The notes beneath the pieces were generated by a model. The model was not told where the DNA came from and made no database searches. It saw nothing but the letters and a program-made list of their open reading frames with translations. A stretch of DNA of 12,415 bases from Promethearchaeota archaeon. Its GTDB lineage: Archaea; Asgardarchaeota; Hermodarchaeia; Hermodarchaeales; Hermodarchaeaceae. Of this stretch, positions 6,341 through 8,078 are shown piece after piece. Within the stretch, counting starts at the first letter, position 1, and each line of letters starts with the position of its first letter. Both the position numbers and the translations under genes were made by a program. Location of the stretch: the NCBI GenBank assembly GCA_048938295.1, contig JBHLMI010000044.1, forward strand, positions 1-12,415. Reading direction: 5' to 3'.

Positions 6341-7612
6341 TTATTTCTTAGATTTCTTTTTGCCCCAGAAGTCGGGAACTTTACCTTCACGGGGACCCCA
6401 AGGATCAGGATTATCGTGTCCAGAATATTGTAGGCGGAATCCGGTGTCCAATTCAGTGACTTGGGCGTCTTTCAAAACAGCCTGCCCCGCGACCAGCCGT
6501 TGTATCTGGTTGGTGCCTTCATAGATTTGGGTCAGCTTGGCACCACGCATCAGCTGTTCAGCAGGGTATTCTTTGGCGTACCCATAGCCACCCATAATTT
6601 GGATACAATCCAGTGTGTTTTGCATCGCAGCGTCAGTGGCGAAGAACTTCGCGCAACTGGACTCCTTGGTGTTGCGTTTGCCTTGGTCGACAAGCCAAGC
6701 TGAATAACGGGTTGCCCATCGGGCGTGCATGGCTCGTGCTTCCATATCTGCGATCATGAAGTTGATACCCTGGTAGACACCGATGGGTTTGCCAAATTGG
6801 TGGCGATGATTAGCGAAGATAGCTGCTTCATCCACCGCACGCTGTGCAATTCCTACACCCAAGGCCGCAATAGCGGCGCGGGTCCGGTCAAGGGTTTGCA
6901 TGGCATACTTGAAGCCCTTACCTACTTCTCCAAAGAGACAATCGCTAGGAATGCGAACATCTTTGTATTCGATTTCTGCCTGGAAGGAGGCGCGCTGTCC
7001 CAGCTTGTTTTCGAGCATGACGATTTTAACGCCGGGGAGTTCAGCGTCCACCATATGCACGGCCATCCCTTTGTAGCCTAAAGAGGGGTCCACGGTAGTG
7101 AAGACACTGTGATATTTGGCGACATGCCCATTGGTGCTGAAGCACTTGCGTCCATTGATGATCCACTCATCACCATCCTTGGTGGCGGTGGTCTTCACGG
7201 CGGCTGCATCTGATCCCGCCTCACGTTCAGTGAGACAAAAAGCCGCAAATTGGGCTTCCTTGCCAGTAGCAAAGGGTTTGAGGTATTTTTTCATTTGTTC
7301 AGGAGTGGCAGTAAGGAGAAGCGGTGTGAGAGCCAGGTTGTTAGCAAGTATAGTTGTGGCGATTCCACCGTCGCCATACCCGATAGCCTCTCCGATGAGG
7401 GTCTCTTCCACCATCGAATGAGCGGGTCCACCGTATTCTTTGGGGATGTGACTGTTCATGAGGCCAGCTTCATAGGCTTTCTGGGCCAGCTTCCAGGGAA
7501 ACTCATCAGCTTCTTCAAGTTCCCGAGCATACGGTACAATCCACTTCTTGGAGAATGTCATAGCAGTGTCAAAGATTTCTTGTTCACGTTTCGTCAGAGC
7601 AAAATCGACCAT
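6341..7612 (-). CDS. Acyl-CoA dehydrogenase (short/medium-chain-type catalytic Glu position)
   Basis: Motifs FCLTEREAGSD, NGRKCFSTNG, KLGQRAS, MGGYGY and IYEGTNQIQR. Start MVDFAL at 7612 with SD GAGGCTGA; the upstream 32-codon extension in the ORF track is unlikely to be real. Confidence 0.95.
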   Translation of the reverse strand: MVDFALTKREQEIFDTAMTFSKKWIVPYARELEEADEFPWKLAQKAYEAGLMNSHIPKEYGGPAHSMVEETLIGEAIGYGDGGIATTILANNLALTPLLLTATPEQMKKYLKPFATGKEAQFAAFCLTEREAGSDAAAVKTTATKDGDEWIINGRKCFSTNGHVAKYHSVFTTVDPSLGYKGMAVHMVDAELPGVKIVMLENKLGQRASFQAEIEYKDVRIPSDCLFGEVGKGFKYAMQTLDRTRAAIAALGVGIAQRAVDEAAIFANHRHQFGKPIGVYQGINFMIADMEARAMHARWATRYSAWLVDQGKRNTKESSCAKFFATDAAMQNTLDCIQIMGGYGYAKEYPAEQLMRGAKLTQIYEGTNQIQRLVAGQAVLKDAQVTELDTGFRLQYSGHDNPDPWGPREGKVPDFWGKKKSKK

Positions 7613-7657
7613 GCATATCAGCCTCGGTATAATTGGGGCGACTAGGTAGGAAACCCG

Positions 7658-7668
7658 CTTAAAAGTTT
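7658..7668 (-). promoter_or_regulatory. Candidate promoter of the acyl-CoA dehydrogenase gene
   Basis: The minus strand reads AAACTTTTAAG, about 46 nt upstream of ATG 7612. Confidence 0.5.
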
Positions 7669-7784
7669 GTAGCTCGTGCTGTGAATCACTTCGACAAAAT
7701 GCGAGCACATACCTTTTTATGTCGCTGATGCGAATTCCACATGAGGATTCGGGACACAGCCAATCAGGCTTCTATTGTTATCAC

Positions 7785-8040
7785 CAGAGCGGCGAGAAAT
7801 TTGGCACCTCTCTCCCCCCTTAGAAAACCATTCCCTCTCCGATGTTTTCATTATCCTTGAGGTGTCTAATCCGCCAAAGCTTGGGTGATGACCATCCGAT
7901 TAGCCTTAGAATGCCAAGTGAAAACAACCCAAAGGTTACTCAACCCCCTGACCTGGATGGATCATGAGTTTTTTCGATGGCGTTGTCTTTGACAGATACG
8001 CCGTTCTCATCCAGAGGGAACAGCACTGTAGCCGCTTCTG
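7785..8040 (-). ncRNA. Candidate unannotated multi-branched structured ncRNA (core about 7824-8026)
   Basis: Nested helices: 7785-93/8031-40, 7831-38/8013-20 (8 bp perfect), 7843-50/7919-26 (8 bp perfect), 7866-71/7898-903, 7934-37/7942-45, 7964-68/8006-10, 7977-82/7999-8004. Most mismatches become G-U on the minus strand. No substantial ORF. Confidence 0.5.
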
Positions 8041-8049
8041 CCTATTAAT

Positions 8050-8055
8050 CTTAAA
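8050..8055 (-). promoter_or_regulatory. Candidate TATA box (TTTAAG) upstream of the structured region
   Basis: Same hexamer as the candidate promoters at 4410 and 7658; predicts a start near 8026. Confidence 0.4.
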
Positions 8056-8078
8056 GCTTCAACAAGGCTCCAGCTCGC

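Follow-up and report, generated by a model that had tools for sequence, protein, structure and literature searches.

The archaeal bulge-helix-bulge (BHB) motif consists of a 4-bp helix with two flanking 3-nt bulges that give the splice sites (PMC4090602). Circles that depend on the splicing endonuclease EndA are known from tRNA introns, from rRNA precursors, from the permuted SRP RNA of Thermoproteus (PMC4731332) and from an intron in a 5' UTR of Haloferax (PMC7714728), and the circular RNAs of archaea have been surveyed (PMC12558985). The BHB substrates treated in these works are tRNA introns, rRNA processing stems, the permuted SRP RNA and two mRNA introns (PMC7714728, PMC12558985, PMC4731332). 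Our search of the literature, incomplete in its coverage, returned no description of a stand-alone, multi-paralog gene family for a BHB-excised ring of new sequence.

The window analysed here, 12,415 nt at its full length, is an entire 12.4-kb contig of a Hermodarchaeia MAG that measures 2.5 Mb and is 91.6% complete. A 446-nt intergenic gap separates its acyl-CoA dehydrogenase gene from an ORF for a 60-aa membrane protein, and in this gap we find a conserved structured element. We think it probable that positions 7781-7888 of the plus strand are a stand-alone gene, whose transcript would give rise to a BHB-excised ring of ~80 nt made by EndA and a ligase (RtcB). The tRNA-splicing machinery is the most likely agent both for excising the ~80-nt piece and for closing it into a ring.

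Results

A conserved hairpin on the plus strand

In a search of 40 relatives, only ~7781-7888 proved to be conserved, at ~90% in 14 genomes of the same genus. The same holds for an alignment of 13 orthologs, where conservation is restricted to 7781-7888 and the flanks are unalignable. As a plus-strand RNA this 108-nt segment folds with a z-score of -3.52, and 1 of 200 shuffles does as well. Rfam 15 gives no hit in the window at gathering thresholds. The claim of an earlier note on this DNA, that the region holds an undescribed stand-alone structured non-coding RNA gene, neither a leader nor a known RNA, stands.

Beyond the element, 7894-8058 shows no similarity at the relatives' loci, although the adjoining 60-aa ORF is conserved. 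The spacer up to this small membrane-protein gene ranges from ~55 to 185 nt across relatives and is ~55 nt long in the closest one. The ORF itself apparently has two hydrophobic segments and matches no Pfam family. Its relatives share 44-88% amino-acid identity and keep the same place between the RNA gene and hppA.

An alignment of 54 family members defines the architecture: a closing stem h, a 4-bp helix H, a 3-bp helix h', a stem P3 and a hairpin P4. The 13-ortholog alignment likewise shows nested helices with compensatory changes surrounding an invariant core. Over the 54 members, 90% of cells are paired (37-46% in slid-partner controls) and 23 of 34 pairs carry double, both-side changes, values that 0 of 500 shuffles reach; fitting this alignment to the covariance model inflates the pairing somewhat, and the compensations are also visible in raw MAFFT alignments. 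Each of the 10 modelled closing-stem pairs changes on both sides in these members. In helix h' all three pairs covary and 86% of cells are paired; for P3 the values are five of eight pairs and 94.4% of cells. Hairpin P4 comes from the fold, its covariation being weak.

G-U pairs are seen on the plus strand only, and their frequency places the RNA on that strand (columns 31:128 in 21 sequences, 25:135 in 16 and 35:124 in 16). The second pair of P3, a G-U in every copy of group 1, the window's own group, fixes the strand as well. P3 in this group reads CACCUC/GAGGUG, the letters of an anti-Shine-Dalgarno/Shine-Dalgarno duplex; this likeness is probably a coincidence, since the other paralog groups do not keep those letters. 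A coding RNA or peptide was ruled out by core indels of 1-2 nt and by interior lengths of 52, 54, 55, 56 and 57 nt.

Table 1. Positions of the RNA element, its parts and its neighbours in the window.
Feature	Position	Strand	Remarks
Acyl-CoA dehydrogenase gene	6341-7612	minus	Divergent neighbour of the RNA gene
Candidate archaeal TATA box CTTTTTAT	7713-7720	plus	TTTATA in orthologs; start predicted near 7745
Closing stem h, 5' strand (5' exon side)	7781-7790	plus	Pairs with 7879-7888 in the MFE and centroid folds
Central helix H, 5' strand GGCG	7791-7794	plus	Pairs with CGCC at 7872-7875
Upper bulge, putative 5' cleavage site	7795-7798	plus	AGA, or AGAA as the next pair is an A.C mismatch; columns 21-23 unpaired in all groups
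Excised, circularised RNA	7797-7876	plus	80 nt here, 79 nt in the transcribed relative; junction shiftable by up to 2 nt
Stem P3, 5' strand (GGCACCTC)	7803-7810	plus	Pairs with GAGGTGTC at 7859-7866
Invariant pyrimidine-rich core CCCCCC(U)UAGAAAACCAUUCCCUCUCC	7814-7840	plus	The same in every copy of groups 1-3 and in the second genus; retained in part by group 4
CCCUCUCC, loop of hairpin P4	7833-7840	plus	P4 is 7823-7832 pairing with 7841-7849
Stem P3, 3' strand (GAGGTGTC)	7859-7866	plus	Pairs with 7803-7810
Central helix H, 3' strand CGCC	7872-7875	plus	Pairs with GGCG at 7791-7794
Lower 3-nt bulge AAA, putative 3' cleavage site	7876-7878	plus	AAU, AAG, AUA or ACA in relatives
Closing stem h, 3' strand (3' exon side)	7879-7888	plus	Pairs with 7781-7790
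Spacer, rest of the element of the earlier note	7894-8058		Unconserved; precedes the small membrane-protein gene
First downstream T-run TTTTTT	7969-7974	plus	Possible end of the primary transcript, as read from the sequence
Small membrane-protein ORF, 60 aa	8079-8261	minus	Followed by the H+-pyrophosphatase gene (hppA)

A bulge-helix-bulge motif and its putative enzymes

Helix H is exactly 4 bp long (columns 17-20 with 137-140), is paired in 96.8% of cells and covaries at three of its four pairs. Present in every member, it takes the forms GGCG/CGCC, AGCG/CGCU, GGCA/UGCC, AACG/CGUU and GGUG/CACC. The lower bulge interrupts the 3' strand beside the closing stem, and the upper one, on the 5' strand, adjoins a short upper helix; in the window they fall at A7876-A7878 and A7795-A7797. 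This two-bulge form is canonical in paralog groups 2-4 (e.g. GGCG-AAA-GAU ... AUC-CGCC-AUA-AAG), as is the lower bulge of the window. The upper bulge of group 1, AGA plus an A.C mismatch, is effectively 4 nt long, or 1 nt in the MFE fold.

The genome has two tRNA_int_endo genes for the splicing endonuclease EndA (104 and 70 bits) and one gene for RtcB (C61:8358-9668, 567 bits). The two endonuclease domains belong to separate genes, at C1:9416-9670 and C19:2925-3185 (ORFs of 188 and 200 aa), which suggests a heteromeric enzyme. Heteromeric splicing endonucleases are the kind that accepts relaxed BHB motifs. In the same genome, the partial matches to 16S (C48:36-1167, 1132 nt for 514 model positions) and 23S rRNA (C20:44859-46418, 1560 nt for 830 model positions) were also located; both genes seem to carry insertions of several hundred nucleotides, which could be introns.

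We propose the following processing. The precursor would fold into a helix-bulge-helix-bulge-helix (BHB) structure, topped by a stem and the conserved pyrimidine-rich loop. EndA, with its two subunit genes, would cut both bulges that flank the 4-bp GGCG/CGCC, and an RNA ligase, RtcB being present, would circularise the excised piece of ~80 nt (7797-7876 +/- 2 nt). The ring would retain stem P3, the invariant loop CCCCUAGAAAACCAUUCCCUCUCC and the conserved UAAUCCGCC segment, leaving flanking 'exons' that amount to just a covarying stem; for group 2 the predicted ring junction is ...AAUCCGCCAU joined to AGAU.... Since conservation resides in the excised ring, with flanks that only covary, the ring would be the product. 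Circular folding predicts a dumbbell, with P3 bearing a large C/U-rich loop at one end and a small loop that holds UAAUCCGCC and the junction at the other.

A circular junction in RNA libraries

A search with words of the 114-nt element led to two wetland metatranscriptome runs, which come from two studies. Each contains one contig of 109 nt, 95-99% identical, in which 7797-7848 and 7821-7876 stand in permuted order. The contigs join 7876 to 7797 with a 2-nt ambiguity (the alternatives being 7798-7877 or 7799-7878), inside both BHB bulges: the junction maps within 7797-7799 in the upper bulge and 7876-7878 in the lower one. Their length would correspond to a circle of 79 nt plus the 30-nt overlap (k-1) of a circular contig assembled at k=31. 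This evidence consists of Logan contigs of depth 2-3, free of strand or end information, and concerns group 1; the RNA comes from a close relative (95-99% identical, with one 1-nt deletion) and not from the strain of the window. A third run, of unrecorded type, gave a co-linear 343-nt contig with genomic flanks, and the genomic copies, 80 or more, are all co-linear. A sequencing-run search with a 5.1-kb stretch listed no RNA run.

For the motif as defined in the introduction, canonical cutting separates the second bulge nucleotide from the third. Two such cuts would yield a circle with 1 nt more than the one observed, whose joint lies within 1 nt of the canonical sites. The discrepancy would fit a relaxed upper bulge in group 1, with cuts between 7797 and 7798 and between 7877 and 7878.

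A small gene family of Hermod-type Asgard archaea

The relatives search also brought up, in every genome, a second copy elsewhere, ~76% identical, with TTTAAATA before it, T-runs after it and a strand matching the plus strand of the window. With a covariance model built from the orthologs (R1), four copies were found in this genome (the window, C16:18544-18685, C53:75664-75777 and C32:22886-23004) and 1-4, mostly 2-4, in each of 19 family genomes. A model built from 54 members (R2) detects 1-5 copies in 19/19 family genomes, and 3-5 in all but two incomplete ones; the 132 other sampled Asgard genomes, searched with stricter filters, gave none, to be read as 'not found' and not as 'absent'. Among the genomes searched, the RNA family is found only in Hermod-type Asgard archaea (the Hermodarchaeia family). 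A pattern scan of metagenome contigs brought 28 further model-confirmed copies, and no copy was found in viral contigs. The DNA pattern scan had a single match in an Eubacteriales contig, which the covariance model does not match and which we therefore discarded as a chance match.

The copies form four paralog groups, the first two of which are syntenic, ~25-37 kb apart on one contig in seven genomes. Genes next to the paralogs differ: acyl-CoA dehydrogenase and H+-pyrophosphatase, acyl-CoA synthetase, a B12-radical-SAM gene, and a Ras-like GTPase. In group 2, the loop of about half the copies (e.g. C16:18544-18685) contains an additional hairpin, UGUCCU-loop-AGGACA, which apparently arose when the UGUCC motif was duplicated. 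Group-3 copies and those of the second genus often have a further hairpin on the 5' side of the closing stem.

The earlier note had named a MITE-like relic as its alternative. Copies were sought in the same genome and in relatives, and they make up a small family, 3-5 per genome, not many dispersed repeats. Synteny holds at the loci checked, those of groups 1 and 2; promoter-like boxes precede the copies, the covariation is of the RNA type and terminal repeats are missing, all of which rules a MITE out.

Putative promoter and transcript ends

About 60 nt upstream of the closing stem, a block reading ...TATAYC-TTTATA-TGTCRCC is kept in 13/13 group-1 orthologs. We infer that the box at 7713-7720 is read on the plus strand and belongs to the RNA precursor; it could instead serve the divergent acyl-CoA dehydrogenase gene. 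The paralogs have TTTAAATA, TTTTTATTAA, TTTATATCC or TTTAAAGG upstream and T-runs downstream. Across the paralog groups a TATA-like box stands ~21-45 nt upstream of the element, and in the window's group the box is of the TTTATA type and stands ~60 nt upstream. The T-run at which the primary transcript may end comes ~80 nt after the element; in orthologs and paralogs, T-runs follow the stem by 5-60 nt.

The stretch separating the RNA gene from the acyl-CoA dehydrogenase gene contains two conserved promoter-like blocks, at 7656-7683 and 7707-7726. One, GCTTAAAAG, resembles a TATA box when read on the minus strand, where the ATG at 7612 follows ~45 nt later; the other is the near-palindromic TATAYC-TTTATA. 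The two look like a divergent promoter pair.

Alternative explanations

A different molecule had been proposed for this DNA in the earlier note: a multi-branch RNA of 200-255 nt on the minus strand (7785-8055), with a start near 8026 and an end at the U-tract 7827-7824. Individual helices of that model are real, arms 1, 1b, 1c, 3a and 3c being perfect and the closing helix 7828-38/8013-23, read on the minus strand, having 9 Watson-Crick and 2 G-U pairs; the 'outer' helix 7785-93/8031-40 is poor, with 4 of 9 positions unpaired on this strand. TTTAAG (8055-8050) and TTTT (7827-7824) are likewise present on that strand, and the promoter and terminator roles given to them fall with the model. The free energy of its 271-nt fold, -80.8 kcal/mol, compares with a mean of -76.5 for shuffles (z = -0.88, 37 of 200 shuffles equally good), and on the plus strand the same stretch shows no folding excess over dinucleotide shuffles either (z = -1.64). 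The proposed extent finds no support, only 7781-7888 being conserved and ~165 nt (7894-8058) being unconserved, and of varying length, even in the closest relatives. With no folding excess and no counterpart of 7894-8058 in relatives, the multi-branch RNA is thus unsupported. The compensatory changes sought for it are strong, for 7781-7888 read on the plus strand; on the minus strand the covarying G-U pairs of the conserved part would become A-C mismatches. These G-U pairs and the TATA boxes upstream of the paralogs set the RNA on the plus strand; in place of three arms it has one irregular hairpin that includes a bulge-helix-bulge motif, and several of the proposed helices take their strands from this different, real structure on the opposite strand. 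Rfam has no match for the minus-strand model, and we hold it to be extremely improbable. An RNA on the plus strand might still be a linear structured sRNA, the permuted contigs then reflecting a minor by-product, or an error made in reverse transcription or assembly. The depth of merely 2-3, the evidence in contigs instead of reads and the junction 1 nt off the canonical prediction would suit such an sRNA. It is nevertheless unlikely: the junction is identical in two libraries from two studies, falls exactly in both bulges of a covarying 4-bp-helix BHB conserved across four paralog groups, and is carried by an isolated circular contig with no branch into flanking sequence.

Circularisation could also restore a known RNA, circularly permuted or highly divergent (tRNA, 5S, SRP RNA, or a C/D or H/ACA guide), for which the permuted, BHB-flanked SRP RNA of Thermoproteus is a precedent (PMC4731332). 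This identity has very little in its favour here. Standard 5S and RNase P RNA genes were located elsewhere in the genome, so that the element is neither; ARAGORN returned 0 tRNA or tmRNA genes, linear or permuted, in the window and 0 on the doubled circles of four paralogs; and for a C/D box sRNA (RUGAUGA + CUGA), the C box occurs in 2/70 unique members and both boxes in 1/70. At E-value thresholds Rfam yields matches of chance level only in the window; the best of those over the element is MtlS (21.7 bits, cut-off 80), and none reaches E<1 when five paralog loci are searched. A cis element, finally, would be either a BHB intron in a 5' UTR, as described in Haloferax (PMC7714728), or an antisense or leader RNA that controls its neighbour, i.e. 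the acyl-CoA dehydrogenase gene here and the radical-SAM gene at the third paralog. Within the genus, group 1 is indeed always beside the acyl-CoA dehydrogenase gene, and group 3 lies ~85 nt upstream of the B12-radical-SAM gene on the same strand. However, neighbours differ between paralogs, the window has no plus-strand gene downstream, and T-runs follow the stem. Moreover, the radical-SAM gene has its own separate conserved promoter-like box, and what is conserved is the excised piece, not the exons. We consider control in cis improbable, and the excised ring of a stand-alone gene remains our preferred reading.

A possible mode of action

We infer that such a ring would act through its C-rich loop. 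Bacterial sibling sRNAs, LhrC and RsaE/RoxS, pair with Shine-Dalgarno regions by means of C-rich loops. Our best guess, a conjecture offered tentatively, is that the ring may be a stable trans-acting regulator whose exposed C/U-rich loop pairs with purine-rich sequences, e.g. Shine-Dalgarno regions. The next guess, equally a conjecture and one on which we would lean still less, is a scaffold or decoy for a C-rich-RNA-binding protein.

In this genome, GGAGGTGA ribosome-binding sites are 4-5-fold enriched in the 20 nt that precede predicted starts (-22 to -4), with a peak at about -15 to -9, and the enriched words before the ATG of long ORFs are GGAGG, GAGGT, AGGTG and GGTGA. Shine-Dalgarno-led initiation is thus in wide use in this Asgard archaeon. 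The CCUCC/CCCUCUCC loop could possibly pair with GGAGGTGA-type sites.

The best complement of the loop genome-wide (as a 16-mer) was rejected as a target: it is antisense to an ORF, so that the mRNA has the RNA's own sense. Across 19 genomes, every exact match to the 16-mer complement is itself one of the RNA genes, and the matches with 1-2 mismatches include no convincing conserved target. Complementarity of the loop to partial 16S, partial 23S and 5S rRNA is no better than that of shuffled loops. A search of the genome (91.6% complete) for TROVE/Ro60 (PF05731), the partner that would make the RNA a Y RNA of a Ro RNP, gave no match.

Discussion

Dedicated circular non-coding RNAs would be a further class if, as it seems, a conserved multi-copy family exists just to make a small ring of new sequence. 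We can speculate that Hermod-type Asgards keep promoter-driven genes solely for stable circular RNAs, and that the rings are regulators or decoys acting via the invariant, anti-Shine-Dalgarno-like C-rich loop; this larger picture is doubtful at present. If true, it would provide a natural prokaryotic counterpart to the circRNA 'sponges' of eukaryotes, in their closest archaeal relatives. The Asgard host also makes this RNA biology relevant to the origin of eukaryotic RNA processing. With its defined junctions and an invariant loop of 25-45 nt, the RNA is a testable object. Annotation based on Rfam misses RNA genes in these genomes, and the covariance models built here can annotate them.

Comparison with known systems

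The introns of archaeal tRNAs and the rRNA processing stems, which EndA cleaves and RtcB closes into circles, resemble the Hermod element in their 4-bp helix with two bulges on opposite strands between helices (PMC4090602), and in an excised circle that is joined within the bulges (PMC7714728, PMC12558985). Here, however, there is no host tRNA, rRNA or mRNA, and the 'exons' are a promoter-proximal stem only; the excised piece is the conserved product, encoded by a multi-copy gene family.

Bacterial LhrC and RsaE/RoxS are alike in having several paralogs per genome with an exposed, invariant C/U-rich motif, and the host genome here has ribosome-binding sites of the GGAGGTGA type. Those sRNAs are bacterial, linear and terminator-ended, and the likeness may extend to a possible mode of action only.

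In Thermoproteus, the circular SRP RNA (Plagens et al. 2015, PMC4731332) is a functional non-coding RNA with a dedicated transcript from which it is released and circularised by the tRNA-splicing endonuclease, as we propose for the ring described here. There a universal RNA, whose function is known, has been permuted, whereas the Hermod RNA belongs to no known family and has no detectable permutation. The BHB intron in the 5' UTR of Haloferax HVO_1309 (PMC7714728) is, like the putative Hermod precursor, an EndA substrate outside tRNA and rRNA that gives a small circle. In Haloferax this is a 46-nt intron within an mRNA leader; here it would be the product of a stand-alone gene, with 3-5 paralogs and an invariant loop.
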